Shown here piece by piece: positions 7 to 59,089 of a DNA stretch of 64,000 nt. The notes beneath the pieces were generated by a model that worked only from the letters and a program-made list of their open reading frames with translations, was not told the DNA's origin and ran no database searches. Made by a program: the position numbers and the translations under genes. The stretch comes from Escherichia phage vB-Eco-KMB40. The DNA lies in sequence record OR539220.1. One strand, 5' to 3'. Within the stretch, counting starts at the first letter, position 1; every line of letters starts with the position of its first letter.

Positions 7-2184
7 TTAGGCCGCAAGGGCCTTCATAGTTTTGGCGATTTGGGAAACTTCATCATCACTTAAAGAGTTGCGATATCCGATGAAGTCGGAAACAATACGG
101 AATTTCTTGGTAAACTCAGCAACCATTTTATCACTGTTTTTTGAAGCATTATTTGATAATACATCAAAAAGATTAGTTACTGTCCAGATGTCATGACCGA
201 TGGTATCTTTTCCACCATTAAAATATACACCACGCAATGAACTAACTATATTAGCGAGTCGTGTATATTCTTCAGAAACTTCATCTGTACTGAAGTACTT
301 CATCATAAAATCTAGTTCAGGATACTTGATAATTTTATCAATATATCGTTGAGCTGAACTTGAATAACCTACGTACTTATCATAATCTACATCATCAAAA
401 GCATCTACATATAAATCACGCAAAGCTTCAAAAATACATTGGCACTGACCGAGTTCTTTTACCTTTTTCTGTAAAAGCGGACGAATAACATAAAATTCAT
501 TAATGCCAATAAGATTAGCCATACGAATCAAAATATTCATAGATGGATGACAGAGAGATGTAGTACCATCCATAGAGAAAATATCAGAACGATGCATATA
601 CGCTACATAACCAGTAATTTCATCTGCTTCTGACGTAAGTGTAAATAGTTCCTCTTTTTCCCAGCGCCCATCTTTAATTTCAAACTTAAATGCTGTAGCA
701 GCTTTAGGACGAGGAGCTTTACTTTTAACTATCTTTGGAATATAGCTTTTAACTAAAGCTTCAATTTCTGACAAATAATGAATGTTAACTTCATCACTTT
801 CAAACATCGCCATAATATCAGGAAGCAAATCAATCTGCGATTCTACTTCTGGATTAATAAACAGAAGACGCTCATTGTGATGAATATTCAAAGTGTTATT
901 AAATTCACTATCATCTAACGCATGTGCTAATCCACGGACAATATTAACACGATTTTTAATATTATCAATAACGATATTAATTTTTGTTGTATTGATACCA
1001 AACAGACGATAACTTGATGCAACGGCTGAAGTTTCATGACTTTGCTTAATGCGTTTCAGTCGAGGGTCAAGATTTACTTCATACACAACTCCTGCATTAC
1101 ATAACTTACTATCAGGTTCAAACATGCTCTGCATCTTTTTATATGACAGATTTTTAGTCGTGAATTTGACTGAATTACTAATCATATAATCTCGAGCAGA
1201 ATACCCCATCTTCATTAATTCGCGATATGTATGACGAGGAGATGTAGATTCTTTAAATCGTTTTACATCTTCATTAAATGCTTTCTCACTGAGTTCTTTA
1301 ACTCGTTCAATGATATTTTTACGAGTGCGATCATCTAGTGAAAGAGCCTCGCGAGATGGAGCAATATCAAGTGAACCCATTGGAAACTTAATGTAATTCA
1401 CTTCATTGCGAATGCTTAGCCAGTTACGGTCTCTAATAACACCATCGATAGGATAAACAATACCGCCATAGATAGCATATAATCCACCACGATCAGGCCA
1501 GTATCTTTCTGGATTTACACCATAATAATCATCAAAATCAGGAAAATAATCAATTTCGCGGTCAAGACCATTAATGATAGCCAAATCTTTGAACGGTCGC
1601 ATAATATAAGAAACTTCATAAGCAAAGTTTCTAAAGTCTTTTTCTTCAACTGGAACTACGATTTCAATACCAGTTTTATCATCTGGACCCATTTCTTTTA
1701 CGAATGTAGGTTTAATTTGTGGACCATCGCCATCCATGTAAGCTACATAACCACGAATTTCACCTTTATGATACGAAGTAATACTAAACGTATCAGTATA
1801 ACTAAACGGAGATTTAGAACCTAAACCAAATCCGCCAATAAAGTCATTAGATTCAGCCTTAGATGAACTGAAGTATGAATTATACAACCCAGGAGAATTA
1901 TCATCACCTTGAATATCAAAATCACTCATACCCGGACCAAAATCTCGACAAACAAATCGTGGGTCTAATCGTCCTGGAACTTGTATGATAAATTTTTCAG
2001 GATTTCCATTGAGAGCATGGGCATCAATCATGTTAGTAATTAATTCACGGACTACTGCGCGAATCTTGTTTGTATACAAATCAGATGACAGAATTTTAAA
2101 TACTTTAGGAGATGCTGTGATGCTAAATGCTTTTGATTTAGAACCATTACCAAGAATTGTTTCTTTTTCAGTGGTGATAATCAT
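7..2184 (-). CDS. rIIA: rIIA protein (725 aa)
   Basis: 725-aa ORF, same length as T4 rIIA, N-terminal ATPase-like region; followed by rIIA.1 and gene 39 as in T4. Confidence 0.9.
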
Positions 2185-2194
2185 AATTTCCTCA

Positions 2195-2398
2195 TTAATT
2201 CATATTACGCTTAATAACTTCAGCAACTTCTAGTAGTTCATCTTTAGTTGCAGTGTCGGATTGAATTTTATCTCTAATATCTTTAAAGCGGTTTTTAAAT
2301 TCTTCGGCTTCTCCCATATCGAAAAAGCGTTGAATGATTCTATATTCTCGATGAACTGCTTTATCAAAAAGTTCTAAATTTACTTTATATGATTTCAT
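2195..2398 (-). CDS. rIIA.1: rIIA.1-like small protein (67 aa)
   Basis: 67-aa ORF directly upstream of rIIA, same position and size as T4 rIIA.1. Confidence 0.7.
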
Positions 2399-2423: not shown

Positions 2424-2453
2424 ATTATACCACATCCTTGTGGTAAAGTAAAC
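2424..2453 (-). promoter_or_regulatory. early sigma70-type promoter (GTTTAC -35, TATAAT -10)
   Basis: minus strand GTTTAC at 2448-2453 and TATAAT at 2424-2429, 18 nt apart; upstream of rIIA.1/rIIA; 32 nt identical to promoter at 46641. Confidence 0.6.
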
Positions 2454-4270
2454 TACTGACTCATCCATTCTTTACGAAGGTCAGCATTATCTCCCATGAG
2501 CATTTCAAAAAGCTCTTTCCAGTTCTCAGGAAGTTTAACAACATCATATACTGGATTTTGAATCATCTCACGATATTCAGATTTTTCCAAAGAGCCAAGT
2601 CCCTTAATATAACGGATGCTATGTTTAGGTAGAGCATCTTTGGCACTCTCATATTCAGCGACTGTATAAAACCATTCTTGTTTTTTACCGACCTGAGCGA
2701 TGATTACAGGAGTTTTGACAAAACGAATTCGTCCTTGCTCAAACAATTCTGGCCAATTACTAAAAAATCCGAGCAAAGAAGGATAAATGCTTCCTAGACC
2801 ATCATGGTCAGCATCAGTCATAATAGCAATATTATGATAATTCAAGTTTTCAGCTTTTTCACCGAGAACTAATCCAGTGATTGCGCAAATATCAAATAGT
2901 TCTTTGTTTTTAAGCATATCTGCATAAGACATACCCCAACTGTTGAGAACTTTACCGCGCAATGGATAACCACCGTGAAGTTCTTTATCGCGAACATCAA
3001 TAAGATATCCGATAGCAGAATCACCCTCAGTCAAGAAAAGAGTAGTGTCAGCATCTTTACCACAAAGATTCGCTTTGATATGTTTATGAACCTTAGCTTT
3101 AGAAGCCTTTTTAGCTGCTTTAGTTTCTGCTGCTTTTTCTGCTGCCAATTTACGAGCCAAAGCAGCTTCAATAATTGGCATCAAAATTGCTTCATTATTT
3201 AGAATAGCACGTGAAATCTTTTTAGCATCAAGCTGAATATGACTACGGATTTCACCAAATGGAGAAGTCAAACGCTCTTTAGTTTGAGAATCAAATCGCA
3301 TGTTTTTCATATCACGAACAAACATAACGATAGTCAAACATTCTTTGACACGCGCTTTAGTTACATCAATTTTGAACTTACGTTTGATTTGTGGAATAAG
3401 GTCTTCACAAATATCATCCATAACACAGTCAATGTGATGGCCACCATTCTTAGTATGAATGTTATTGACGTATGTTAATTGACGAAATCCATCCGGTGAA
3501 CGACCAACCGCAATAGAACAATTTTCTTGTTCTTGAACAATAGCATGTTCATCATACTGTCGTGCATATTTCTTAAAATTGCCCTGAACCTTTTTACCAT
3601 TAAAGGTAAATTGAATATCAGGATAAACAACAGCAAGTGTCTGGAGACGATCTAATGTAATGTCAAGATAAACCTGAGATAGCTCATTAGTTTCAAATGA
3701 CATAAAATCAGGAATGAAAGTAACGCGAGTTCCTTTCCATTTTCCAGGAATATCTTCCCATGATTTATTTTCCATGCCATTTGAACAACGAACTACAATA
3801 TTATTTTGACCATCACCAGTTTCACCGACAAACATCACAGAAAAAATGTTTGTCAAACTAGAACCAACACCATTCATACCGCCGGTGACGCGTTCTTTAT
3901 CATCACCGAAGTTACCACCTGCTTTTGGAATAGTCCATGCAGCAACAGGACCAGGAATTTCTTCACCGGTAGGTGTTTTAACCATCGCTTGCGGAATACC
4001 ACGACCGTTATCTTCAACTGTTACTTGATTGTTTTTAATAGTAACATTAATTTTATTTGCGAATTTAAACTTAGTACGAATACCTTCATCTACTGAGTTA
4101 TCGATAATTTCATCAATAAGCTTAACAAGACCAGGTACATACTGAACACTTTCCCATTTACCAAACAGAAAGCGCTCATGCATTTCATTAGCAGAAGAGC
4201 CAATGTACATGCCACTACGCTTTTTGATATGTTCAATATCGCTCAGAATTTTAATTTCATTCTTAATCAT
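2453..4270 (-). CDS. 39: DNA topoisomerase II large subunit, unsplit (605 aa)
   Basis: GyrB-like ATPase motifs, N-terminus MIKNEIKILSDIEHIKKRSGMYIGS as T4 gp39; continuous ORF covers the part encoded separately by gene 60 in T4; track start at 4273 is GTG, ATG at 4270. Confidence 0.9.
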   Translation of the reverse strand: MIKNEIKILSDIEHIKKRSGMYIGSSANEMHERFLFGKWESVQYVPGLVKLIDEIIDNSVDEGIRTKFKFANKINVTIKNNQVTVEDNGRGIPQAMVKTPTGEEIPGPVAAWTIPKAGGNFGDDKERVTGGMNGVGSSLTNIFSVMFVGETGDGQNNIVVRCSNGMENKSWEDIPGKWKGTRVTFIPDFMSFETNELSQVYLDITLDRLQTLAVVYPDIQFTFNGKKVQGNFKKYARQYDEHAIVQEQENCSIAVGRSPDGFRQLTYVNNIHTKNGGHHIDCVMDDICEDLIPQIKRKFKIDVTKARVKECLTIVMFVRDMKNMRFDSQTKERLTSPFGEIRSHIQLDAKKISRAILNNEAILMPIIEAALARKLAAEKAAETKAAKKASKAKVHKHIKANLCGKDADTTLFLTEGDSAIGYLIDVRDKELHGGYPLRGKVLNSWGMSYADMLKNKELFDICAITGLVLGEKAENLNYHNIAIMTDADHDGLGSIYPSLLGFFSNWPELFEQGRIRFVKTPVIIAQVGKKQEWFYTVAEYESAKDALPKHSIRYIKGLGSLEKSEYREMIQNPVYDVVKLPENWKELFEMLMGDNADLRKEWMSQ

Positions 4271-4297
4271 CACTTATCCTCGTTTGGTTTCGGGAAT

Positions 4298-4322
4298 ATT
4301 ATACTCCGGTAATCATAAAGCT
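4298..4322 (-). promoter_or_regulatory. candidate middle promoter (MotA-box-like AGCTTTA, 12-nt spacer, TATAAT)
   Basis: minus strand AGCTTTA at 4316-4322, TATAAT at 4298-4303; upstream of gene 39 start. Confidence 0.4.
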
Positions 4323-4340
4323 AAAGGCCCGAAGGCCTTT
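4323..4340 (-). terminator. intrinsic terminator hairpin (UUCG loop)
   Basis: AAAGGCC-cgaa-GGCCTTT perfect 7-bp stem, U-rich flank; right after stop of 4340..4600 ORF. Confidence 0.6.
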
Positions 4341-4600
4341 TATTTAAAACGGATAGTCGAATCCTTAAAGAACAGCCCAGAACATACTGTTCCTTCTACT
4401 TTCTGCCCAGTAGGTCCAATAGCACGAAATCCAGTATGCTGGAAATCATTTTCAGAGCAACCGAACCAATTATATCCAGTGATTTCAATATTAGTAAAAC
4501 CACTTGAAGACAAAACTTTAGTTGCATTATCAGCATCAGTACATCCTACTAAAGACACTACTAATACTAATGCTGCAATAGAACGATTAATATATTTCAT
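4340..4600 (-). CDS. predicted lipoprotein (86 aa)
   Basis: signal peptide with lipobox LVGC; in 39-cef interval. Confidence 0.5.
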   Translation of the reverse strand: MKYINRSIAALVLVVSLVGCTDADNATKVLSSSGFTNIEITGYNWFGCSENDFQHTGFRAIGPTGQKVEGTVCSGLFFKDSTIRFK

Positions 4601-5195: not shown

Positions 5196-5410
5196 TAATA
5201 AATTTCCTTCCAGTAAGTTGTGCCATCTTCAGTAATTTCACGAAATACACCATAAATTGGCTGTTTATCGCCGACTTTCTCATACACATAAACCGAAGTC
5301 AAGTGAGTAAACTTGATGGTGTGTTCCTTTTGAACTACTACCAAATCTGGATCAAATAATACATCTTCAAATTCATCATTAGTGCAGTTCTGAACAATTT
5401 TACGTTTCAT
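5195..5410 (-). CDS. hypothetical protein (71 aa), at position and size of T4 cef
   Basis: 71-aa ORF with SD GAGGAAA; assignment by position and length only. Confidence 0.4.
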
Positions 5411-5508: not shown

Positions 5509-5551
5509 ATCAGTAGTTGATATTGATATAGTACCATAATCAACTACTGAT
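5509..5551. repeat. 13-bp perfect inverted repeat around a promoter -10-like element
   Basis: ATCAGTAGTTGAT at 5509-5521 and ATCAACTACTGAT at 5539-5551, 17-nt spacer attgatatagtaccata. Confidence 0.7.
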
Positions 5552-5579
5552 GTATATAGTTTTATGAAAAATTTAAACT

Positions 5580-18213: not shown

Positions 18214-18243
18214 ACTATACCATAGTCTTGTCAGTTTGTAAAC
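18214..18243 (-). promoter_or_regulatory. early sigma70-type promoter for dmd
   Basis: GTTTAC at 18238-18243, TATAGT at 18214-18219, SD AGGAG downstream. Confidence 0.55.
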
Positions 18244-19670
18244 TAAAATTTTAATTCATTTGCCAAAGCATCTAACTGAGCTCGAGTGGATTCATTTCTT
18301 TGATAGCGATTCTGTTCAGCCTGAATCTGTTGTGAACCTGCTACTTCACTCACTTCGGTTGGAGTAGAATCTTGTTCAATTTCTACCCATTTTTGATTTC
18401 CTTTTTGAACACCCATCAAAAACTTATTCCACTTATTCTTATCACCATATCGTGATTTGATTTGCTTAATAAGTTGTTGTTCAGCAGCTGCCAACTCCTC
18501 GGTTTCAATGACCGCAAGCATAAAATCGGCTGTCGCTGGAAGACCAGCAGATTCTGCGATATCACTCATGTTAACATCAGAAGAATCCCAAGCTTGTTTA
18601 CCAACCTGTGCTGCAGTCCAAAGAACAGTTTCGGTTTCAACAGCCAGAGCACGCAATTCCTCTGCGATAGCTTTAACAGTTGTGTAACTATTTTCTGAAT
18701 AAACTCTAATGCGGCAAGATTTACAAATACCTAGATAGTCGACAATAATGATTGTTGGAACAAAATTCTTCTTGAGCTTTAATTCATTTAAAAGTGATCG
18801 AAATGTATTAGCGTCTGCTCCACCAGTAGGATATTGTTTAACGATTAAACGACCGAGAGTAGATTTCTCACGCCATTTTTCCATTTTTCCTTTATACTCA
18901 GCGTAAGAAATATGCCCATCATCAATGTCATCAAGAGAAACATCGAGCATATTAGCGTCAATACGTTTAGCACAGACTTCTTCTGCCATTTCCATGGAGA
19001 TATAAAGAACGTTATGACCAAGCTGCAAATAATCTGCTGCTAATGAACAAAGTCCTAATGATTTACCAACGTTAACGCCAGCCATTAAAACGTTCAGTGT
19101 TCCTGTTTCAGCTCCGCCTTTAGTAATTTTATTCAAAATACGAAGTTTAAATGGAACTTTACGAGCTTTATTCATATAAGATAGCCAACGTGCTTCGTAG
19201 TCATCCATCCAATCATGACCAACGTAGCTATCAAATGAAATTGATAATGCTTGGCGCATGATGTCAGGAATAGCACCAACATCCGGCATTTTCTTATTTC
19301 GTTTTTCCGGAGGAAGTTCAGCATTAGTTTGAATTTCGATTATTTTAGACGTAGCATTAAACATCGCCCTTTGCTGAACATATTTTTCTGTTTCTTTTAC
19401 TAACCAGCTGTGGTCTTCTGGAGAATCGGCTAGTTTTGAAATAAGTGTTTTTACACCAGAATATTCCGTTTCAGTAAATGAACTATTTTCTAATGCAACA
19501 TTTAACGCATTAATAGATGGAACGCTATGATACTCATTAACATGAGATTTAATTAATTTGAACGTATTTTTAGCTGGACCACTTTCAAAATATTCTGAAT
19601 CCATATATGGCCAAACTTTTGAAAAATAAGCTTGATCAAATATGAGATGAGAAAGAATAATTTCTACCAC
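18243..19670 (-). CDS. 41: replicative DNA helicase, DnaB-like (475 aa)
   Basis: 475 aa as T4 gp41; Walker A GVNVGKS. Confidence 0.9.
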   Translation of the reverse strand: MVEIILSHLIFDQAYFSKVWPYMDSEYFESGPAKNTFKLIKSHVNEYHSVPSINALNVALENSSFTETEYSGVKTLISKLADSPEDHSWLVKETEKYVQQRAMFNATSKIIEIQTNAELPPEKRNKKMPDVGAIPDIMRQALSISFDSYVGHDWMDDYEARWLSYMNKARKVPFKLRILNKITKGGAETGTLNVLMAGVNVGKSLGLCSLAADYLQLGHNVLYISMEMAEEVCAKRIDANMLDVSLDDIDDGHISYAEYKGKMEKWREKSTLGRLIVKQYPTGGADANTFRSLLNELKLKKNFVPTIIIVDYLGICKSCRIRVYSENSYTTVKAIAEELRALAVETETVLWTAAQVGKQAWDSSDVNMSDIAESAGLPATADFMLAVIETEELAAAEQQLIKQIKSRYGDKNKWNKFLMGVQKGNQKWVEIEQDSTPTEVSEVAGSQQIQAEQNRYQRNESTRAQLDALANELKF

Positions 19671-23653: not shown

Positions 23654-23902
23654 TCAAATGCAAGTAGTAATTACTCCAGTAGTGCTTATGCAGGTATTAC
23701 CCATTTGCACACCTAAAGATCCATTTGTATTCACATGAAGATTATCATCAATTTTAACTGATATTTTACCATTAGTGTGAATAACGGTGCTAGATTCAAT
23801 CACAGGTTGAGTATCATTTTCAACACTAACAAATGGAACTGCTGCTAATGCAACTAAACAAACTGCTAAGCATCCCATAATAATTTTCATTTTATTCTCC
23901 AA
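23654..23902 (-). CDS. secreted/membrane small protein (82 aa)
   Basis: N-terminal hydrophobic signal; SD GGAG. Confidence 0.5.
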   Translation of the reverse strand: MENKMKIIMGCLAVCLVALAAVPFVSVENDTQPVIESSTVIHTNGKISVKIDDNLHVNTNGSLGVQMGNTCISTTGVITTCI

Positions 23903-23924
23903 ATCCGTATTAGTTGATAGTTGT

Positions 23925-23954
23925 ATAGTACCATGGAAGAACAGTCTTGTAAAC
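23925..23954 (-). promoter_or_regulatory. early sigma70-type promoter
   Basis: GTTTAC at 23949-23954, TACTAT at 23925-23930; conserved TGGTACTATACAACTATCAAC block shared with promoters at 49613 and 51052. Confidence 0.55.
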
Positions 23955-24040
23955 AGTTTTGTGAAAATTTTTTAGGGAATTCTAAAGGTCCAGAATCATC
24001 TGTTTTTCATAAGTATAGATTTATATTACTTGTATGAAAA

Positions 24041-26767: not shown

Positions 26768-26825
26768 AGATATTCCTTAGTTTATAGCCCGAGTTATTAG
26801 GCTCTTGATATATTATACTCCAAAT

Positions 26826-26843
26826 AAGGGGCCGAAGCCCCTT
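26826..26843 (-). terminator. intrinsic terminator hairpin after regA
   Basis: AAGGGGC-cgaa-GCCCCTT perfect 7-bp stem. Confidence 0.55.
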
Positions 26844-26845
26844 GC

Positions 26846-27214
26846 TTAATTACCAATCGTATATTTAGGAACGAGTTTCCATTCATGTTTTTGTTTAAAA
26901 GAAATAACTCGGAAGTTATTAGTTAAATCTTTCATAAAAGTTCTTTGTCCAGGAACGATTTCAATCAGTCCCCAATCTTCTAACAGCCATGCAATCGAAT
27001 CACGACGAACTTCATCTTCTTCTGTCATTTCAACTTGACGGCCATCCATACGAAGCATTTCTTTAAAATGAACGATATAGTATAGTCCTTTTTTCTGAAG
27101 AATATGACAGGACTGATACAGAACTTTATCTTTATTATTAGCAATTCCCATACGAGTCAAAGTTTCTTTTACTTTCAGAAAATCTTCAGGTTTTTTAAGA
27201 GTAATTTCAATCAT
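26846..27214 (-). CDS. regA: RegA translational repressor (122 aa)
   Basis: 122 aa, position between 62 and 43. Confidence 0.85.
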   Translation of the reverse strand: MIEITLKKPEDFLKVKETLTRMGIANNKDKVLYQSCHILQKKGLYYIVHFKEMLRMDGRQVEMTEEDEVRRDSIAWLLEDWGLIEIVPGQRTFMKDLTNNFRVISFKQKHEWKLVPKYTIGN

Positions 27215-28740: not shown

Positions 28741-28774
28741 AATTTCCTCATTCAAGTTTTAGTGTAAATTATAA

Positions 28775-28788
28775 AGGGCCGAAGCCCT
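28775..28788 (-). terminator. short terminator-like hairpin after gene 45
   Basis: AGGGC-cgaa-GCCCT 5-bp stem. Confidence 0.4.
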
Positions 28789-28791
28789 CTA

Positions 28792-29478
28792 TTAAAAATC
28801 GTGGGTAGAATCAGCTTCAAGAGCTACTACATAATTCGCATGTTCACCTTCAAATTTAGCAGCACCTTGTTTACCTTTTGCCCAGAGCAGAAGTTTATAA
28901 TTTCCTGGTTGCATTTTCATATTTGCCATATTGATAATGAAATTAAATGTATTTTCACCATCATAATCACCAAGAGTCAAAGAATATTTAACACGGGTCA
29001 GAGCAGAATCTTCTACTTTATTAAAACCGTTAATTACGATTTTACCTTCTTTTACCGTGATAGCAATTGTATCAATTTGCAGACCACGAGATACACGCAA
29101 CAGTTGTTGAAGGTCTTCAGCTTTAATTTCAGTAACAACAGATGCTACCGGGAATGGAATTGGTTTATTAGGAGCAACTACTGTACTCGGATCGGCTGCT
29201 GGCCAAAAAATTGTTGAGCGGGCATCAGCAATTTTAATATTTCCATCTTCTGACTGGGAAATTTCTGCATCATCATTAACTAGAGACAGAATACCGAGAA
29301 AACCGTTCAAATCGTAAATTGCTACATCAAAATCAATAACGTCAGAAATATTTGCTTCCGCATAAGTTGTACCATTAACTGCGCGAGTCATAATAAATTG
29401 ACCGGATTTAAGCATAATACCAGAGTTAATAGTAGCGAAATTTTTAAGCAGAGCAGTAGTATCTTTAGACAGTTTCAT
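28792..29478 (-). CDS. 45: sliding clamp (228 aa)
   Basis: 228 aa, matches T4 gp45. Confidence 0.9.
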   Translation of the reverse strand: MKLSKDTTALLKNFATINSGIMLKSGQFIMTRAVNGTTYAEANISDVIDFDVAIYDLNGFLGILSLVNDDAEISQSEDGNIKIADARSTIFWPAADPSTVVAPNKPIPFPVASVVTEIKAEDLQQLLRVSRGLQIDTIAITVKEGKIVINGFNKVEDSALTRVKYSLTLGDYDGENTFNFIINMANMKMQPGNYKLLLWAKGKQGAAKFEGEHANYVVALEADSTHDF

Positions 29479-34329: not shown

Positions 34330-34352
34330 TATATCAAACTCCGTATAAAGCT

Positions 34353-34370
34353 AAAGGGCCGAAGCCCTTT
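34353..34370 (-). terminator. intrinsic terminator hairpin after a-gt, possibly bidirectional
   Basis: AAAGGGC-cgaa-GCCCTTT perfect 7-bp stem with U-rich flanks on both strands. Confidence 0.6.
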
Positions 34371-35571
34371 ATTTTGTAATAATGTCAAACTGTTCTTTAA
34401 AGCAGAAGCTTGAATCTTGATGCTGATACAAAAATTCATAAGCTTTTTCGCGTTCGCGGTCATAAAGAGTTCGGTCAGATGACAGTTCTTTAATACGTTC
34501 AAATGTTGATTCCATGTCATTTTCATCAAACCAAATGATACCGCTATCATGCGAGGTCAAAGGAGTATTATCAACACGGAATTTTAAATTTTCGCCAGTA
34601 GATTTCCAAAATACCGGAATTGTTCCACATGCACCAAGCTCGAGATGAGTATATTCTAAAGAACGTTGTAGATATTTTTTATCCAACTTACTCAACTGAT
34701 AACCAAAACCGGATTTACTCATACGTTCAAGCATTTCGCTATTTACATAACGGTCAAGAATTTGCGTTGGCAAATTAGGAGCAATTTTAATTTGGTCTAC
34801 TTGATGAAGACGATAATACTCGTATGGAATTCCTTTTTCTTTAATAGGAATGAACGCTGGAGAACGTTCCAGACCTTCCATAATAGTACTTAGTCCTGCA
34901 GGTTTAAGATGTTTTTCATGAAAATCAAACATCTGATAAAAACCTTTCCATGTGGTCGTACGACCAATCCAACGGTTGATATTCATGTTAATTTCAGAAA
35001 CATCTTTCCAGTAGGTTGACCGAACCTTCGCAATATCCATAGGAGGCTGAAAGTTATATACTGTCGGTGCTTCTTCAATATCATCAAACAGAGAAACTGT
35101 TTCAGGATACCATTCTTTCATCAGAACTTTATTAAAATCACCATTATCAGAATGGCTAAAAATAACATCAGCTCGACGAACAGTTTCTTCTAATCCCAAA
35201 TTTCGACGCAAAGAAAGAGAAGAATGGTCATGTTGATAAACTACAACACGAACAGAAGGTTTAATGTTATCAATAATTTTTTTATAGTTATTAATAGTGT
35301 CTTCTTCAACCGAAGTAGCAGGAACTGAATTGATAATTAGAATATCACAATCATTTACCAGCTTAAGTGTTTTATCATATTCTTTTGCCAATAAAACCGG
35401 AATTGAAAATGATTTATAATCATGCGCGCAATTACGAGTAAATGATTTATCTTTAGCATAAACCAAAGTTACTTCATGACCATTCTTAATAAACCAATCA
35501 CGTTGCTCAAGAGAAAATTTAGTTACACCACAACCTTCAAGACCTCGAGCCATAAAAATACATACTTTCAT
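34369..35571 (-). CDS. a-gt: alpha-glucosyltransferase (400 aa)
   Basis: N-terminus ICIFMARGLEGCGVTKFSLEQRDWFIKNGHEV and 400 aa as T4 alpha-gt. Confidence 0.9.
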   Translation of the reverse strand: MKVCIFMARGLEGCGVTKFSLEQRDWFIKNGHEVTLVYAKDKSFTRNCAHDYKSFSIPVLLAKEYDKTLKLVNDCDILIINSVPATSVEEDTINNYKKIIDNIKPSVRVVVYQHDHSSLSLRRNLGLEETVRRADVIFSHSDNGDFNKVLMKEWYPETVSLFDDIEEAPTVYNFQPPMDIAKVRSTYWKDVSEINMNINRWIGRTTTWKGFYQMFDFHEKHLKPAGLSTIMEGLERSPAFIPIKEKGIPYEYYRLHQVDQIKIAPNLPTQILDRYVNSEMLERMSKSGFGYQLSKLDKKYLQRSLEYTHLELGACGTIPVFWKSTGENLKFRVDNTPLTSHDSGIIWFDENDMESTFERIKELSSDRTLYDREREKAYEFLYQHQDSSFCFKEQFDIITK

Positions 35572-37955: not shown

Positions 37956-37993
37956 ACATTATCCTCAATTACGTTAAAATTTTATTATCCAAA

Positions 37994-38009
37994 AAGGGCC
38001 GAAGCCCTT
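37994..38009 (-). terminator. intrinsic terminator hairpin
   Basis: AAGGGC-cgaa-GCCCTT followed by U5 on transcript. Confidence 0.6.
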
Positions 38010-38208
38010 AGCTAAACTTTTTGGCACCCTTCCAGCCTTCGTACATCATTGCGACTGACAATGACAAAGCTCCTTCACATGCTGCATACTTATTATTCCA
38101 GAACCAATTTAGAAAAACTTCATCCTCAATACCATTGTGTTTCATGTTCTGGAAAAATTTGGCGCGTTCTTCAGCAATTCGCTGTGATAATTTAGATTCA
38201 GGATTCAT
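38008..38208 (-). CDS. hypothetical protein (66 aa)
   Basis: ORF in 55-nrdH cluster. Confidence 0.4.
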   Translation of the reverse strand: MNPESKLSQRIAEERAKFFQNMKHNGIEDEVFLNWFWNNKYAACEGALSLSVAMMYEGWKGAKKFS

Positions 38209-38817: not shown

Positions 38818-38847
38818 ATCAATTCCTCAAAGGTAATTCATATGTTA

Positions 38848-38877
38848 ATAATACCATGGTTTGAACTTGTTGTAAAC
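38848..38877 (-). promoter_or_regulatory. early sigma70-type promoter
   Basis: GTTTAC at 38872-38877, TATTAT at 38848-38853. Confidence 0.5.
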
Positions 38878-38958
38878 AACTTTGTGAAAAATATTTTAGG
38901 GAATGATAAGAAAGGAACGATAGCTTAGAATGGTAATATACAGAATGTGAGAAAGAAA

Positions 38959-44246: not shown

Positions 44247-44636
44247 TTAATCCAAAATATTATTAGGCATTGGTTGAACACTCACAAGTTCTTTAAAGAA
44301 CTCAGTAGAGTCAGGCAATTTAACCATTTCCGGAGCATGCTTACTGAATTTATGTTTACATTGACGGCATTTATATTCAAGCTCTGGTTTACGCCAGTTA
44401 ATCAATTGAACTTGTTCAGTACCGCATTCAGGGCAATTAGGAACGTTTTTAGAAGCTCTTTCACGTCGTTCAACCATAGCCATAATAGCATCCCATGCTG
44501 GAGGTTTAAAATCTAAATCGTCGCAGCCGTGAATCTTTCCACGCATTTCCATATCATCTTCCTCACCAGCCATAATAATTTTAATTAGACTAGAATTACT
44601 TGAAGCTGCAATGTCTTCTAATAAACGCTTTTTCAT
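44247..44636 (-). CDS. zinc-ribbon protein (129 aa)
   Basis: CPEC...CRQC Cys pairs. Confidence 0.45.
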
Positions 44637-45562
44637 TTCAATACCTCAATAGCATTACGTAAACCATTTGCTTTGGCGGTTAAAGCCTTAAGAACTTTAG
44701 TATGCTCTTCAATTTGTTTTTCAACTTCAGCCAAACGGGCATTGAGATATTCACGTTCTTCACTCAGATTATCAACCTTTTCTACTTTAGGCTCTTTTAC
44801 AACTGTCTTATATGTATTAGGGTTCTTCAGTTTAATTAGAATGCGTGAACTGTATAACATTGAACCATTATCTTCGGTTTCGTCATACATTTCCACTACG
44901 TCCATAATTTTTAACATCATGCGGAGTTTATAAGACAACGAACGAATAGTTTTGTTGTGCTTATTAATTTCTTTAGCTGTCATGGCGCCAAGATTACGTG
45001 AGTAATAATAAGGAACCTGGATATTAATTAATACTGATGAACCACCTGGCTTGTGTGTTACTTCATCAGCAATAACCCAGTCCTTAACATGAACTGTATT
45101 TGTACGGTCATCGCCTGCAGTAAACAGCTTGCGAGCATGCTTAAAAAGCATATTCACTTGGTCATTGAATTGACAAGCAAATTTATCAGCAAATTTAGTT
45201 TCAGGAATGGTAGATAACCAATCAGCCAAATGGGTCTTTTTAACATCGTTAACAATAGTAAATTCAACCAAATCAGTTATAGATGTCGCAGATTTAATGA
45301 AGCTCGGCTTCATAAAGTTTTTAATGTTATCACGAGCTACAGTAGAAGATAACATACGAGAACGTTTAAACCATTCAAGCAAATTGCCTAACGAATGAGA
45401 ATAAGCGTTTTGAGTATCTTTACAGATATGATTTTCCTGACCAACATATTGAAGGAAATCACGAAGAATATTATTGATTACTGCTCTGTGCCCGATCTGA
45501 TAATTACGGTGTTTAGTAATAAGACTGTCAAAATAATCAATATAATGTTTACGAGTTTTCAT
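44633..45562 (-). CDS. hypothetical protein with C-terminal coiled coil (309 aa)
   Basis: heptad-like C-terminus ...EEREYLNARLAEVEKQIEEHTKVLKAL. Confidence 0.5.
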   Translation of the reverse strand: MKTRKHYIDYFDSLITKHRNYQIGHRAVINNILRDFLQYVGQENHICKDTQNAYSHSLGNLLEWFKRSRMLSSTVARDNIKNFMKPSFIKSATSITDLVEFTIVNDVKKTHLADWLSTIPETKFADKFACQFNDQVNMLFKHARKLFTAGDDRTNTVHVKDWVIADEVTHKPGGSSVLINIQVPYYYSRNLGAMTAKEINKHNKTIRSLSYKLRMMLKIMDVVEMYDETEDNGSMLYSSRILIKLKNPNTYKTVVKEPKVEKVDNLSEEREYLNARLAEVEKQIEEHTKVLKALTAKANGLRNAIEVLK

Positions 45563-45614
45563 GTTCTTCTCACTTGGTTAATGATTTATACTCCGAGCCA
45601 TCCTTGGCTTTAAA

Positions 45615-46613
45615 TTACTTAATTAACTGTAAAGCTTGTTCCAGACGATCCAAGCGATTGACAGATTCTTCCCAAATCTTTTTAGCCTGCTCATATTCTT
45701 TCTGCGCTTTATTAGAAATTTCTAGAACTTCTTTATAAGCTTTTTCTAGTGCAATAACTTCTGGACGAATTTCTACCGGTTCAGGTGAATCATCAAGATT
45801 ATCCATTAGTTCCTCAAGGGTAGTTTCTTCTTTAGGAGTATTCACAATTTCATCACATTTTTGTTGATAAATTTCTTTATCAGTAGGTGAGTACGCGCAC
45901 TTTACTTCACGAAGACTAATTACAATTTTATATCCTTCCCATCCGCATATATTCTTAAAAGGATATGTATGAATATTTTCTACTGTTTCCATACAAAGTA
46001 ATGCAGTCTCTAACTGACGAGTTATAGTGCTAGCAATTGAGAAAAATTTATTAATATTCTTTTGGTTAGCGTTTGGTGTAAAAAATCCATAATTCACAAA
46101 AATAGCTACTTTATTTTCATCAAGCTCATATTCTTTTACGATAATCATATCAGAAGCCAAAGGATGAATTTGACGATAATCGCCATAACATAATTTAGAA
46201 GCTGATTTTAGAATTTGTCCTTTGAAAAGTCTGAAATTACTAATCCAACGACGAGTAAAAATATTCTCAGGGTCTTCTTTATTAAGATGATAAGAATTAA
46301 CATCACCAAACCAATTATATCCTACTACATCTTTAGTTCGTTTAATTTCTTTCCCAAATTTACTAAGAATATCTCTGTTGACTAAGTATGAAAGAAGACG
46401 AGACCCTTTAAAGGTTTTCTTAATGTCATCTTTATCTGTACGACTAGAAATTTCACGAACTTCATGAATAAATTTACTGGAAGAAACAATACTTGCATCA
46501 ATACTGCTGAGCCATTGATTGATAATAGAAAGAACAGCGTTCTGACTAGACATGGGTTTAACTTTATCATCAATAACGCTATTGAATGATTTGATATATT
46601 CGTTACGAGTCAT
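45615..46613 (-). CDS. hypothetical protein with C-terminal coiled coil (332 aa)
   Basis: track ORF trimmed to ATG at 46613, because promoter -10 lies at 46641-46646. Confidence 0.5.
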   Translation of the reverse strand: MTRNEYIKSFNSVIDDKVKPMSSQNAVLSIINQWLSSIDASIVSSSKFIHEVREISSRTDKDDIKKTFKGSRLLSYLVNRDILSKFGKEIKRTKDVVGYNWFGDVNSYHLNKEDPENIFTRRWISNFRLFKGQILKSASKLCYGDYRQIHPLASDMIIVKEYELDENKVAIFVNYGFFTPNANQKNINKFFSIASTITRQLETALLCMETVENIHTYPFKNICGWEGYKIVISLREVKCAYSPTDKEIYQQKCDEIVNTPKEETTLEELMDNLDDSPEPVEIRPEVIALEKAYKEVLEISNKAQKEYEQAKKIWEESVNRLDRLEQALQLIK

Positions 46614-46640
46614 ATTAATCTCCTCAGTAGAAAGTAAGAA

Positions 46641-46670
46641 CATTATACCACATCCTTGTGGTAAAGTAAA
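46641..46670 (-). promoter_or_regulatory. early sigma70-type promoter; 32-nt exact copy of promoter at 2424
   Basis: GTTTAC at 46665-46670, TATAAT at 46641-46646; attataccacatccttgtggtaaagtaaacta identical to 2424-2455. Confidence 0.6.
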
Positions 46671-47690
46671 CTAGTTTAGTGCGTTTAGTGCGTTGTTCAG
46701 TTTAGAACGTTGCTTCGTGAGATTTTTGACTTTTTCTTGTGCTTTTTCTAGCATCTTTTCAGCTTCTAACACTTCATTGGTCGCTTTAACGAGTTCATCA
46801 TCTACTGCCTTAAGGGACTTCTCAATCGCATCCGCGTGCCATTTTTCAACAGGTTTAAGACTCGGATTTTCAGTAGGAAGAAAATTCACTTTATTAAATT
46901 TCCATGCATCTTTATTACCTGAGCTATACATCCAAAATTTAGGATCGTTTGATGAGCAATTAGATAAATTTAAGTTATCTTGCACTTCCTGCTTTTTCTC
47001 TTGTATAACTTCGTCCTTTCTCAAAAAATCGTATTTAAATGAAACGATCATATCAAGTTCATACGTTGTTGTGTCTAATTTAAATCGTTCAAAACGAGGT
47101 AAAATCTTAGATTGAACAGCGGCAACAACATCCATATACTTAAATGCTTCTGTCAACTGTGATTTAAGGCATTCACAAATTGAAAGAGAATTTTTTGTAT
47201 TAGGTTTAAAGCTAATTCGTGCAGTTCTATTATTTTCTTTTAATGGTCTTACTTCCATCTGAAGAGTATAACCATCAAATTTCAGGTTCTTTAAGTTAAT
47301 GTCAGAACCTTTTAATCGACTAGCTGTCGACAAAATTTGCTTTAATTGTTTACGGAATAGAGCAATAAATCTCCATTCAAGACGGTAATGATTTGGATTA
47401 AAAAATCCTGTTGATAAATCAACCTTACTCTGACCAACGCCTTGAACAAATAGAGGATTTTTATAATCAATAGTTTTACAGAAATCGGTGAGCTGTTCAC
47501 GAGCAGTCATTTGCGTAATATATCCAGCTTTATCAAAATGTCGCAACCATTCACTGCTATTCATATACTTAAAGTGAATGGAACTATTAACTCTATCAGG
47601 GTCTAAATTATTTTGGCACAAAAATGTCATAACATTACGGGTATAGCTGGCATTACGAACCATATCTTCAATTTGAGAACGAGTTTTCAT
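46671..47690 (-). CDS. hypothetical protein with C-terminal coiled coil (339 aa)
   Basis: C-terminus ...EVLEAEKMLEKAQEKVKNLTKQRSKLNNALNALN. Confidence 0.5.
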   Translation of the reverse strand: MKTRSQIEDMVRNASYTRNVMTFLCQNNLDPDRVNSSIHFKYMNSSEWLRHFDKAGYITQMTAREQLTDFCKTIDYKNPLFVQGVGQSKVDLSTGFFNPNHYRLEWRFIALFRKQLKQILSTASRLKGSDINLKNLKFDGYTLQMEVRPLKENNRTARISFKPNTKNSLSICECLKSQLTEAFKYMDVVAAVQSKILPRFERFKLDTTTYELDMIVSFKYDFLRKDEVIQEKKQEVQDNLNLSNCSSNDPKFWMYSSGNKDAWKFNKVNFLPTENPSLKPVEKWHADAIEKSLKAVDDELVKATNEVLEAEKMLEKAQEKVKNLTKQRSKLNNALNALN

Positions 47691-47698
47691 GGTATTCC

Positions 47699-48622
47699 TT
47701 AAGATTTAAGTAAATCAACAATTTTAATTAACTTTTCACGCTCAGATTTAGCTTTACTACTCAATCCAGATAGTCTAAAGATTTCATCGTCATATTGTTG
47801 AATAGAAATATTCAGCTCTTCAATTTGCTTATTAAAATAATCAATTTGCTCAGAATGTTTTTCGTTACTACGAACTGGTACAGGTTTTGTAGGCAATTTA
47901 GTTGAACTGGATTCATCCGGGCGATAAATTAAAATACAACTTGAACCAATTGGACATTTTGCACCAGATGAATATTCTAATGTTCCAGATTCTTTTAAAA
48001 CTTCAAAAGCTAAACAGAGATGATGACCCATATTGACATAATCAGTAGAGCGAGCTCTGATGTAATAATCATCTCCACGAGTACTAAATTTAAAGCATTT
48101 AAGGTCTTCTGTATTATTGGTCTTAAAAATCATTTGTTTATCTAGACCTTTAGCTAATCGAGCGCCTAATGCTAATAATCGTCGTTGATTTTCCCACAAA
48201 TATGCAATCATTTGGTCAAATGATAATTTTGGCATTAGTCGACCATAAAGGTCATATCCTTTATTATAATTACGAAGAATTTCACTCGCATTAATACGAG
48301 ACAATGCTCCAATTTTATTAAGGGCTTTCATGATGCGATTAGATAAACTCATTCCAGATCCGTTTGTTCGCTGTAAATGTTTTTCTAATCCAAATCCAAT
48401 ATCAACTTTAAATTTATCTAAAATTTCAGCATGAACATCTCTGTCAATAACATTCAAATCCAAAGTTGGGTTAAATCTATGAAAAAATTTATCTGGCTCT
48501 CCACGACGAAGTACAGTCCATTCATTCAATTTTTTATTAACTAAAGATTTAATTACTGTATTGACATTATTAATTACTACTGACATATTTTCCTCACTCA
48601 ATTTCAATTTTACTAAATACAC
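47699..48622 (-). CDS. hypothetical protein with C-terminal coiled coil (307 aa)
   Basis: C-terminus ...IEELNISIQQYDDEIFRLSGL. Confidence 0.5.
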   Translation of the reverse strand: MYLVKLKLSEENMSVVINNVNTVIKSLVNKKLNEWTVLRRGEPDKFFHRFNPTLDLNVIDRDVHAEILDKFKVDIGFGLEKHLQRTNGSGMSLSNRIMKALNKIGALSRINASEILRNYNKGYDLYGRLMPKLSFDQMIAYLWENQRRLLALGARLAKGLDKQMIFKTNNTEDLKCFKFSTRGDDYYIRARSTDYVNMGHHLCLAFEVLKESGTLEYSSGAKCPIGSSCILIYRPDESSSTKLPTKPVPVRSNEKHSEQIDYFNKQIEELNISIQQYDDEIFRLSGLSSKAKSEREKLIKIVDLLKS

Positions 48623-49056: not shown

Positions 49057-49584
49057 TTATGCGAGTACCGTCTTTAACCGTTCTTCAAACTTCCGAAGAG
49101 TATTTTGGCGTTCAGCTCTTTGCTTTTTGTAAGTTTCAATACGCTCTGAAATGAGAGTGTATCGTTCATTTACTGATTCTTTCATAAAATCAGGAATTTC
49201 ACGAGAAGCTTTAATCTCATCAAATTTATCAATAACAGCTTGCTCTTCAGCAATTAAGTTATCATACATTAAAATATCTTTCTTGATGAACTCAATATCT
49301 TCTTGAGTTACACGAGATAATTTAGATGCTTTATCCTTTTTGTACTGTTCGTTAGTATCACGAGACCAGTGTAATGTACGATTTTTATTCGTATTTTTGT
49401 AAATTTCTACAATACCAATTTCATCAATAATAACGATCCAATTCCAACGGGATTTGTAAATTTGTCCTCCATCAACAGTGATTTCACCTCCGATTGAGAT
49501 GTCATTAAAGAACTTGCTTTGTGCTTCAGATTTAAATTTACCATCGTTGTAATTTACCAGGTTGAAAATATCTTTAGCATTCAT
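49057..49584 (-). CDS. hypothetical protein with C-terminal coiled coil (175 aa)
   Basis: track ORF trimmed to ATG at 49584 with SD GGAGG, because promoter -10 lies at 49613. Confidence 0.45.
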   Translation of the reverse strand: MNAKDIFNLVNYNDGKFKSEAQSKFFNDISIGGEITVDGGQIYKSRWNWIVIIDEIGIVEIYKNTNKNRTLHWSRDTNEQYKKDKASKLSRVTQEDIEFIKKDILMYDNLIAEEQAVIDKFDEIKASREIPDFMKESVNERYTLISERIETYKKQRAERQNTLRKFEERLKTVLA

Positions 49585-49612
49585 TTTGTGTTCCTCCGTA
49601 GTTGATAGTTGT

Positions 49613-49642
49613 ATAGTACCACAGAGGAACAGTCTTGTAAAC
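49613..49642 (-). promoter_or_regulatory. early sigma70-type promoter
   Basis: GTTTAC at 49637-49642, TACTAT at 49613-49618. Confidence 0.55.
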
Positions 49643-49644
49643 AA

Positions 49645-49959
49645 CTAAAAGAAACTTCTTTCACAATTTTTTCCACTAAACCATGCGCTGACCGCTTTCT
49701 TAGTCTCAGGAGCAGTGTTATCCATAAACCATTCAAAGGCAGCCTTTTTATGATTCTGGAGGGCTTCTCGGGCTTTAATCTGCTCACGGTCTATTAACAC
49801 TAACATATGAGCCTTTCTTGTCACCAAGGGCTTCTTATGATTTTTTGAATACTCCCAATCATTTGTCCATCGCATCGTTGTTGCGAACTGAAATACTGCT
49901 TCTTTAATTTTAGTTTCGTAAATTTCACGAGCCTTTGAGTATAACATCATTACCTCCAT
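49645..49959 (-). CDS. hypothetical protein (104 aa; start may be ATG at 49947)
   Basis: SD GGAGG best placed for ATG at 49947. Confidence 0.45.
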   Translation of the reverse strand: MEVMMLYSKAREIYETKIKEAVFQFATTMRWTNDWEYSKNHKKPLVTRKAHMLVLIDREQIKAREALQNHKKAAFEWFMDNTAPETKKAVSAWFSGKNCERSFF

Positions 49960-50048: not shown

Positions 50049-51017
50049 TTATTTCAGAAGAGTAACCTCAGCAATTTCTTCCCAACCGTTTTTGTCGGTC
50101 ATAATAAAGTCAGCAAGATAAAGTGCAGTACGCAGTGAAACATTGCGTAAACGATTAACATTGACTTTCATCCATGATAATGCTTTATAAGTTTCTTCAT
50201 CAGAAAGACCGCGTTTTTGCATCATGTCAGTTGAAAGAATAACATCTTCAACCCTGACCATAATTTCTTCATTAGTGTGAACACCCAAATCCAAATAAAC
50301 TGAGCGGGAAACTAATGCTTGTAAATGTGGAGCAAGTTTAGTACCACGGTCTAATTCGCGGTCAATGTCAACGTTTGTGATAAAAACAATCGTTCCTTTA
50401 AATTCAAACTCACGCTCAATGCCTTTTTCTTCTAAGTAAGAAGATGCGGTGCTCCAGCAGACTTTACGGGTCTCTCCGGTGTCCAGAGCAGCTTTCAGAA
50501 GATTAAGAATGTCCATATCAGAGAAAACATCCACATCATCAATCAAAAGGACAGAATTCTCTTCACGATTATTCCAAAGCTGTTCATAAAGACCGATACC
50601 AGAGATTTTACCATTAATGCTTTTATATTCGATGTATCCAATATCATTTGCTTTATTTAAAGCTTTATCTAAAGAATACGTTTTACCAATACCTGCTGCT
50701 CCAGAGATAATTAATGAACGAATGTTTCCGTTAATAATACCATTCGTCATCATTCCCATAACATTAAATCTTTTATTAATGCGGGTTTTCATATCTTCAT
50801 ACGATTCTTTAACTTCTTCAACTTTTACACCATCATATGAAATGTCTGATTTGTAAACCCAAACACCGCGACGCTTACCGTCAATTTCAACAAAAACTTT
50901 ACCATCTCCTTGTGCATCTACCGGAGCATTATCTGGGAACCATTCACCTAAGAGCTCAAAAGTTCCAGAGATTTCTTTACCGAAGTAGATACCCTTATTG
51001 ATAGTTACAGTTTTCAT
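50049..51017 (-). CDS. P-loop ATPase, AAA-like (322 aa)
   Basis: Walker A GAAGIGKT, Walker B-like VLLIDDVD; ATG at 51017 with SD GGAGAA; track ORF extends through the promoter. Confidence 0.55.
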   Translation of the reverse strand: MKTVTINKGIYFGKEISGTFELLGEWFPDNAPVDAQGDGKVFVEIDGKRRGVWVYKSDISYDGVKVEEVKESYEDMKTRINKRFNVMGMMTNGIINGNIRSLIISGAAGIGKTYSLDKALNKANDIGYIEYKSINGKISGIGLYEQLWNNREENSVLLIDDVDVFSDMDILNLLKAALDTGETRKVCWSTASSYLEEKGIEREFEFKGTIVFITNVDIDRELDRGTKLAPHLQALVSRSVYLDLGVHTNEEIMVRVEDVILSTDMMQKRGLSDEETYKALSWMKVNVNRLRNVSLRTALYLADFIMTDKNGWEEIAEVTLLK

Positions 51018-51051
51018 TTTATTCTCCAAATCCGTATCAGTTGATAGTTGT

Positions 51052-51081
51052 ATAGTACCATAAAGCTTTATGCTTGTAAAC
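51052..51081 (-). promoter_or_regulatory. early sigma70-type promoter
   Basis: GTTTAC at 51076-51081, TACTAT at 51052-51057. Confidence 0.55.
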
Positions 51082-51110
51082 CGTTTTGTGAAAAATTTTT
51101 GAAATAAAAA

Positions 51111-53138: not shown

Positions 53139-53748
53139 TCACTTTGAAATCATAGTTGGAATGACAGAATCAAGATAATTCTTTAGCGCAATAGCTTCGT
53201 CTTTGGTAAATGTGACAATATGTGCTCGAGAATCATCATTTTGGCGAACAAGTACGACATCGCCATCTTCATAAGAAGTCTTGACATCCAAAGTCGTAGT
53301 ATAGTTTGCAGCTACTGGATTAATAATGCTAGCACCGCGATCTTTAGCCCATTGAAGTTTAACCTTTTCGGGTGTTTCGACTGTTTCAGATTCCAAGAAT
53401 TCTTTCACCTTGGCAACGAATGTTGCCCAATTGTTGATAGAAAGACACATAAATTCAGTTTCAATAGGCAACGAATGTTGCCCAATTGTTGATAGAAAGA
53501 CACATAAATTCAGTTTCAATATTACCGCCGTAAAGGCCACGATAAAAACGAACTTGGAGGTCGCCTGTAATATTAGTTACACCGGTAACTCCTGAGGGAG
53601 CATAAGATAAAATCGCAGCCAGTTCCATAGGAAGAATAGTAATACTATCGTCTTCCTGCGTCAGAACGTATACATTATCACGTTTTTCGATAACCAGGTC
53701 ACCGAACAAATCAGTTGTTTCAATTACAGCTTTCATATTATTTACCAA
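53139..53748 (-). pseudogene. gene split by 55-bp tandem duplication frameshift (tracks 53461..53748 and 53139..53540)
   Basis: both ORFs encode IETEFMCLSINNWATFVA from the two repeat copies; removing one copy gives a single ORF of about 185 aa. Confidence 0.7.
53412..53521. repeat. perfect 55-bp tandem direct duplication (53412-53466 and 53467-53521)
   Basis: ggcaacgaatgttgcccaattgttgatagaaagacacataaattcagtttcaata present twice head to tail with no mismatch. Confidence 0.9.
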
Positions 53749-54055: not shown

Positions 54056-54085
54056 ACTATACCATAACCTTGCCAACTTGTAAAC
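54056..54085 (-). promoter_or_regulatory. early sigma70-type promoter
   Basis: GTTTAC at 54080-54085, TATAGT at 54056-54061. Confidence 0.5.
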
Positions 54086-54087
54086 CA

Positions 54088-54261
54088 TTAAATGGCGTTT
54101 TCAATAAAATTCTGAAGCTTTGTGTGAGCATCAACCATGATTTTCATTTCTTCTTTGGCGAAAGCTGTACCTCTTTCCCGAGAAGAACATTCATAGTCAG
54201 AAACTGCATTAGCATATTCTTCAATTAGTTTCATTAAAAACATCTGCTTTTCAGTTTTCAT
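54088..54261 (-). CDS. hypothetical small protein (57 aa), not in ORF track
   Basis: MKTEKQMFLMKLIEEYANAVSDYECSS...; SD AGGTGG. Confidence 0.4.
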   Translation of the reverse strand: MKTEKQMFLMKLIEEYANAVSDYECSSRERGTAFAKEEMKIMVDAHTKLQNFIENAI

Positions 54262-59059: not shown

Positions 59060-59089
59060 AATTATACCACAGTCAAGAGGAAAAGTAAA
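59060..59089 (-). promoter_or_regulatory. early sigma70-type promoter for regB
   Basis: GTTTAC at 59084-59089, TATAAT at 59060-59065. Confidence 0.55.

Follow-up and report, generated by a model that had tools for sequence, protein, structure and literature searches.

Two copies of a 32 bp T4-type early promoter cassette are present in Escherichia phage vB-Eco-KMB40, and they are most probably identical through past copying and subsequent selection, rather than constituting a working source of genome rearrangement. According to this explanation, both would be minus-strand instances of a single early promoter cassette read by the host sigma-70 polymerase. Copy 1, which follows directly on gene 39, would initiate early transcription of rIIA.1 and rIIA, and copy 2, following directly on nrdC.5, would initiate transcription of nrdC.4. 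The copies would derive one from the other, or jointly from a shared cassette, through an event that can be provisionally dated to the ancestor of Tequatrovirus; since then, selection acting on the strength of the promoter and on the hairpin within the cassette would have kept both near-invariant.

The window analysed here, a stretch of 64,000 nucleotides, covers the initial 64 kb of the genome of a Tequatrovirus (T4-like) phage, starts at rIIA and is colinear with phage AR1. The exact 32-mer, ATTATACCACATCCTTGTGGTAAAGTAAACTA on the plus strand, occurs twice within it, and no further match with three or fewer mismatches could be found on either strand of the whole window; in a shuffle control, a match was obtained in 0 of 100 shuffles. 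The first-pass annotation had reported this 32 bp identity correctly, although its second interval (46641-46672) was one base too low and should read 46642-46673. The identity extends over exactly 32 bp, as both outer bases differ between the copies, and the flanks are unrelated. This pair represents the longest exact dispersed repeat of the window, the sole longer exact repeat being a 55 bp tandem (53412/53467). An assembly artefact was rejected as the source of the repeat, as both copies recur with their distinct flanks in dozens of independent genomes. The features of the two loci are listed in the table.

Table. Coordinates of the two promoter cassettes, their component parts and the adjoining genes within the window.
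Feature	Position	Strand	Basis	Remarks
Copy 1 of cassette	2424..2455	-	exact match, scan	rIIA.1 promoter (rIIA by read-through)
Copy 1 -35, GTTTAC	2448..2453	-		G is the last base of the gene 39 TAG (2453-2455)
Copy 1 spacer hairpin, TACCACA-AGGA-TGTGGTA	2428..2445	-	fold
Copy 1 -10, TATAAT	2424..2429	-	start inferred from spacing	preceded by TGn; predicted start ~2417
Copy 2 of cassette	46642..46673	-	exact match, scan, annotation	nrdC.4 promoter; orthologue of T4 'early promoter 50.0'
Copy 2 -35, GTTTAC	46666..46671	-		G is the last base of the nrdC.5 TAG (46671-46673)
Copy 2 spacer hairpin	46646..46663	-	fold; scan
Copy 2 -10, TATAAT	46642..46647	-	start inferred	predicted start ~46635
rIIA	7-2184	-		after rIIA.1
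rIIA.1	2195..2398	-	ORF list; T4 and AR1 annotation	67 aa; first gene downstream of copy 1
Gene 39	2453..4273	-		DNA topoisomerase II large subunit, ~605 aa, unsplit; stop inside copy 1
nrdC.4	45615..46613	-		332 aa from ATG 46613, preceded by GAGGAG; downstream of copy 2
nrdC.5	46671..47690	-	ORF	339 aa; stop inside copy 2
Degenerate cassette relative upstream of nrdC.3	45584..45609	-		AGCCA-AGGA-TGGCT hairpin, then GAGTATAAAT; poor -35

Read on the minus strand, the 32-mer is TAGTTTACTTTACCACAAGGATGTGGTATAAT, with the layout TAG TTTAC TTTACCACAAGGATGTGG TATAAT. The parts of the cassette are, in order, the TAG with which the upstream gene ends, the GTTTAC -35 element, an 18 bp spacer containing the hairpin and a TATAAT -10 element with a TGn extension. 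Both copies conform to the T4 early promoter consensus GTTTAC-N14-gtggTAtaaT, consisting of GTTTAC, 14 nt, GTGG and TATAAT; this consensus is quoted from the ASO78A record, in which the copy 2 site is itself annotated as a T4-type early promoter. In a promoter scan both scored 10/12, with TG before the -10. The T4 record U76612.1 has the nrdC.4 site annotated as 'early promoter 50.0', including -10 and -35 signals. Upstream of both rIIA.1 and nrdC.4, the minus-strand leader from the predicted start to the ribosome-binding site (GAGGA/GAGGAG) and ATG is 19-22 nt, and the genes adjoining both copies are all on this strand. Hence the consensus, the spacing of ribosome-binding site and ATG and the T4 annotation bear out the early promoter identity originally assigned to both copies, and from consensus, position and the annotation of T4 we infer that both would be active as promoters in this phage. 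A small ORF within the hairpin (AAGGATG…) was considered and rejected, the spacing between its Shine-Dalgarno sequence and ATG being zero.

An A-rich UP element (approximately -40 to -60) is absent at both copies, where the upstream 20-40 bp are coding sequence: the 3' end of gene 39 (…GAATGGATGAGTCAG) at copy 1 and that of nrdC.5 (…AACGCACTAAACGCACTAAAC) at copy 2. Neither is rich in A-tracts, unlike the upstream regions of other promoters in the window. UP elements are a frequent, rather than obligatory, feature of T4 early promoters, which have been described as unusually constrained 'uber' promoters with a consensus extending beyond the -35 and -10 (PMC2988021). The early promoters (Pe) of T4 at rIIA.1 and nrdC.4 occupy the same loci, on the same strand, with the same elements (GTTTAC, N14, gtgg and TATAAT). 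In T4 the rIIA.1 copy adjoins gene 60, whereas here it adjoins an unsplit gene 39; this gene is a single ORF, the phage being without the gene 60 split, 50-nt translational bypass and mobA insertion of T4.

The element is of an already known kind, at already annotated promoter sites, and has the architecture of the PeSLs (promoter-early stem-loops), repeated cassettes of T4-like phages that run from the stop codon of an upstream gene through an early promoter and a stem-loop to the Shine-Dalgarno sequence and start codon of the downstream gene (Arbiol et al. 2010, PMC2839356; Comeau et al. 2014, PMC4122927). A stem-loop between the -35 and -10 characterises one of the commonest PeSL subclasses (PMC2839356). 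PeSLs are located in plastic regions, and their promoter consensus in PST and T4 is TTTACW-N17-TAYWAT (PMC2839356, PMC4122927); analogues in T-even phages have been described at the internal-protein loci (Repoila et al. 1994, as cited in the PeSL papers). Both copies possess all of these components, with the stem-loop between -35 and -10, and match this promoter consensus, and like PeSLs they are repeated in the genome and adjoin variable, non-essential genes. The plasticity near the cassette is exemplified by the loss of nrdC.4 from EC121, and by the lack of both nrdC.4 and nrdC.5 in RB69 and in the lineage of IMG/VR contig 2974739009. The cassette differs from typical PeSLs in its stem, which is short and of mixed AT/GC composition rather than polyG/polyC, and in that the characteristic AT-rich upstream region is missing at both copies.

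The genes around copy 2 have features of their own. The four consecutive genes from nrdC.3 to nrdC.6 (44633-48622), each of ~300-340 aa, are mislabelled 'thioredoxin' in database records. Of these, the T4 version of nrdC.5 reportedly works against the Dsr1 sirtuin defence (PMC9391042). A distant paralogous relationship links nrdC.3 to nrdC.4, with 24% identity over 226 aa (E 2e-6). The site upstream of nrdC.3 carries TATAAAT after its hairpin, resembling the T4 late-promoter core TATAAATA, and the class of promoter at nrdC.3 may have switched after the tandem duplication that gave rise to nrdC.3 and nrdC.4.

Short BLAST queries against the phage collection served to study the distribution of the cassette. 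Exact matches to the 32-mer were obtained at 535 places in 482 phage records, 53 of which have both copies exact. In T4, as in AR1, the rIIA.1 promoter is identical over 32 bp, while the T4 nrdC.4 promoter matches at 31/32 positions. The two copies agree at every base in vB-Eco-KMB40 and in 52 database records, but T4 has TTTGCC at nrdC.4. This one-base variant (the G allele) is found in 308 records including T4, at one place in each, and there is also a third allele, TTCGCC; the allelic variation is confined to the outer edge of the spacer hairpin's stem. Over the 1.4 kb around the promoter, identity is merely 90-95% in most records. Judged from these comparisons, the promoter pair is genus-wide, old and better conserved than its surroundings. 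Scans of IMG/VR with the nrdC.4 leader and the nrdC.4 protein returned just 4-5 loci, all of them from Tequatrovirus and too few for population analysis.

Such identity between dispersed copies might alternatively be maintained by ongoing gene conversion, as a form of concerted evolution, instead of ancient copying and purifying selection. In favour of this hypothesis, copies are identical within genomes while their stems differ between lineages, with ACCACA/TGTGGT found twice in Tequatrovirus and AACCA/TGGTT twice in the lineage of contig 2974739009; furthermore, the allele identical to rIIA.1 is present at nrdC.4 on several flanking haplotypes (the window, AR1, MLP2 and ESh25). However, in 308 of 308 records the G allele occupies a single site, always nrdC.4 and never rIIA.1; most genomes thus keep their copies one base apart, and there is no sign of conversion toward G at rIIA.1. 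In the Jiaodavirus genome, too, A and G variants coexist among the copies. Nor can a single-base polymorphism separate conversion from recurrent mutation or from allelic recombination, the last of which is rampant around the nrdC.4 promoter, as indicated by the mosaic pattern of identity. No mosaic breakpoint specific to the promoter was evident when identity was examined in 100-nt bins across nine genomes, being patchy throughout. Ongoing conversion is therefore a possible but unsupported process, the G allele being at both loci in no genome, and as the explanation of the repeat it seems rather improbable.

The repeat had originally been noted for its potential to generate deletions or duplications of the intervening 44 kb through homologous recombination, a role that now appears very unlikely. 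In mechanistic terms recombination over 32 bp is possible in T4: the copies are exact direct repeats, only small patches of homology (<50 bp) are said to be needed (PMC2839356), pairs of PeSLs situated close together do recombine (PMC2839356), and microhomologies of 6-10 bp suffice for rearrangement (PMC9391042). Because such short matches already suffice, as a substrate the 32-mer does not stand out; nor is the pair uniquely recombinogenic, given the presence in the window of a near-exact repeat of greater length (51 nt at 98%, 23884 vs 51011). Chimeric 152-nt queries, one representing the deletion joint and one the duplication joint, matched no record at >=80% query coverage among ~500 Tequatrovirus genomes. 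The 44.2 kb interval, which is colinear with AR1, includes dda, 56, 61, 41, uvsX, 42, 43, 62, 44, 45, 46, 47 and 55, and its deletion would be lethal because essential replication, recombination and late-transcription genes lie inside it. Its duplication would not be packageable, because the resulting unit of ~212 kb exceeds the 172-kb headful, of which 3.3 kb is redundancy (PMC9391042). The mini-circle or modular shuffling envisaged for neighbouring PeSLs would thus be unproductive between copies 44 kb apart across essential genes. Hence the claim of rearrangement is unsupported, and the pair would not be a working source of it because the products would be lethal or unpackageable.

Rearrangements that can be identified nearby use other sequences. 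Escherichia phage EC121 has a natural deletion of nrdC.4 (MF001359.1 48583-48869, compared with 45490-46647 in the window), in which the nrdC.4 promoter, leader and ATG are fused to the body of nrdC.3 via an 8-bp microhomology, ACTCGTAA, common to the 5' ends of the two genes; the same shortened match is observed in phiC600P9. This loss fits the deletions and tandem amplifications by microhomology described in T4, in which short direct repeats recombine (Srikant et al. 2022, PMC9391042, with the studies it cites). Those events involve 6-10 bp and 0.7-6 kb of non-essential DNA, are bounded by the headful, and in no case use the 32-mer pair. The other example is the perfect 55-bp tandem duplication at 53412-53521 (2 x 55, which is not a multiple of 3). 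Through it, a gene on the minus strand is split into ORFs 53139..53540 and 53461..53748, and the removal of one copy in silico gives a single ORF of ~184 aa (MKAVIETTDLFG…). Either the duplication is recent and shifts the reading frame, or it is a mistake in the assembly.

The spacer of the cassette is predicted to fold as UACCACA-AGGA-UGUGGUA, with a 7-bp stem and a 4-nt loop (-8.2 kcal/mol, z ~ -2.1); the z-score is modest, equally good folds arising in 4-8 of 200 shuffles. At the polymorphic position pairing is kept, A-U being replaced by G-U. The AGGA loop is also found on other stems: CTTCCA/TGGAGG in Gaprivervirus, CATCCA/TGGATG in Dhakavirus, CAACCA/TGGTTG in the IMG/VR lineage of contig 2974739009 and AGCCA/TGGCT at the site upstream of nrdC.3 in the window. 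Across related promoters 85.7% of cells in the stem are paired, compared with 29-45% after sliding of the 3' partners, and both sides have changed in 4/7 pairs, these values coming from a covariation alignment of just 5 distinct rows, hand-anchored on the loop. The offset of the hairpin from the -35 differs by 4 bp between genera.

These observations bear on the proposal that the spacer palindrome, CCACA-AGGA-TGTGG, is a double-stranded operator for a dimeric regulator of host or phage origin. Its perfect dyad symmetry between the -35 and -10, a common position for repressor binding, would suit such a function, as would the invariance of the core across hundreds of genomes and its reuse at several promoters in two genera. 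However, the arms vary in compensating pairs across genera, such that only the loop, (C)AAGGA, is fixed; the polymorphism is one that A-U or G-U pairing survives; and the hairpin shifts relative to the -35 between genera. Compensating changes in the stem around a fixed loop therefore favour a folded strand over an operator recognised by a base-specific protein, for which there is little likelihood. To our knowledge, no regulator has this palindrome as its site.

A permissive terminator scan of the hairpin accepted the nrdC.4 copy, which has a T-rich tail, and rejected the rIIA.1 copy. Neither conforms to an intrinsic (Rho-independent) terminator, as there are only 3 G-C pairs and the tail is UAUAAU…. 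Terminator activity consequently looks doubtful from the sequence, and the hairpin may act in attenuation, or in stabilising the 3' end of read-through RNA. Further hairpins occur in the window. Two early-promoter-like sites, 18214-18255 and 54056-54097 (minus), have very stable hairpins whose 14-bp stems surround the -10 hexamer (-17.3 and -16.5 kcal/mol, z ~ -5 to -6), and are identical to one another at 26/32 positions. A GC-rich family, (A)GGGCC-GAAG-GCCC(TT), is located at gene ends (4322-4343, 26825-26846, 28772-28793, 34352-34373 and 37992-38013), these presumably being intrinsic terminators or RNA-stabilising stem-loops.

The probability of two promoters being alike by chance was calculated using a position-weight model built on 17 early-promoter-like sites of the same geometry from the window. 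Identity at 32/32 positions is expected at ~4e-10 per pair, or ~6e-8 over all 136 pairs, and the spacer alone gives 4e-8. The spacer positions of the other early promoters are nearly free, with a per-position match probability of 0.27-0.47, and those of the other strong promoters are quite different from that of the 32-mer; the next-most-alike pairs among the 17 sites agree at 28/32 and 26/32 positions. Because the consensus alone would give 32/32 at only ~6e-8, it is insufficient to account for the repeat, and the two copies share descent. Independent convergence on one optimum, which the unusual constraint on T4 early promoters (PMC2988021) might seem to favour, can accordingly be dismissed with near certainty in view of this freedom of the spacer and the diversity of those elsewhere in the window.

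The similarity of the cassette to other promoters in the window is of a different nature. A 21-bp core had been thought common to three further promoters, but the match is not contiguous, the longest sub-match elsewhere being 11 bp, at 59061. Sites 14290, 59061 and 62265 match the 32-mer at 23-24/32 scattered positions, and sites 18214 and 54056 at 21-22/32. The positions in common fall in the -35 block and in that of the -10/extended -10. Early promoter cassettes of a second family were also observed to be repeated, at 23884-23973, 49572-49661 and 51011-51100 (and additionally at 5514-5576 and 38834-38896), in which the repeated unit takes in the leader, ribosome-binding site and first codons. 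Two of its members agree at 50/51 positions (23884-23934 vs 51011-51061), so that this repeat surpasses the 32-mer in length once a single mismatch is tolerated. The spacer of this second family resembles a Jiaodavirus spacer at 24-25/30 positions.

Relatives of the 32 bp cassette were identified in other lineages. A Jiaodavirus contig (of the Klebsiella phage KPV15 type) contains GTTTACTTT(A/G)CCACAAGGATGTGGTACTAT three times at unrelated genes: behind gene 43, near cef and before the homologue of the small ORF at 5213-5410 in the window. The orthologous site behind gene 43 in the window has a different type of promoter. Over 26 bp the cores of Tequatrovirus and Jiaodavirus do not differ, although the phages diverge at genus level, which is poorly explained by simple vertical descent, so that either horizontal transfer or unusually strong constraint is needed. 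The lineage of contig 2974739009 has two identical copies with a stem of their own, behind dexA and before the homologue of nrdC.3, and these share 11 more bases of leader.

The direction of copying can be tentatively reconstructed from outgroups. The hairpin promoter is absent before rIIA.1 in RB69 and WG01, the two examined: in RB69 the interval from gene 39 to rIIA.1 contains additional ORFs, while in WG01 there are additional ORFs as well as a different promoter at this position. Orthologues of nrdC.4, by contrast, carry the hairpin promoter. The rIIA.1 copy is thus most likely to be the derived one, the nrdC.4-type promoter having been copied to the junction of gene 39 and rIIA.1, as far as the few outgroup genomes allow this to be judged. 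Using the same two phages as a test for concerted evolution was uninformative, as RB69 is without nrdC.4 and nrdC.5, and WG01 has the different promoter.

It is conceivable, although the balance of probability lies against it, that promoters with the AGGA-loop hairpin form a distinct early promoter sub-family that has been repeatedly copied or homogenised across Tevenvirinae lineages and in which the hairpin has a conserved job. This suggestion stems from the sets of copies in Tequatrovirus (2), Jiaodavirus (3) and the lineage of contig 2974739009 (2), each set being identical within its genome save for the A/G position of Jiaodavirus. Were it true, the hairpin with its invariant CAAGGA loop might serve, for example, in attenuation, in 3'-end protection of read-through RNA or in the binding of a factor, and the cassette would be a mobile promoter module, not a passive repeat.

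For genome stability the repeat has little consequence: it is a conserved, annotated promoter at two loci, and the rearrangements predicted from it are unseen and would be inviable. Its value is more modest, as a clean example of the reuse of a cassette combining promoter and hairpin in T4-like phages. That the same core is found at unrelated genes in different genera, with its hairpin kept by compensation, supports the published idea of regulatory cassettes as units from which early-gene regions are assembled, and the cassette provides a defined element with which the function of in-promoter stem-loops may be probed.
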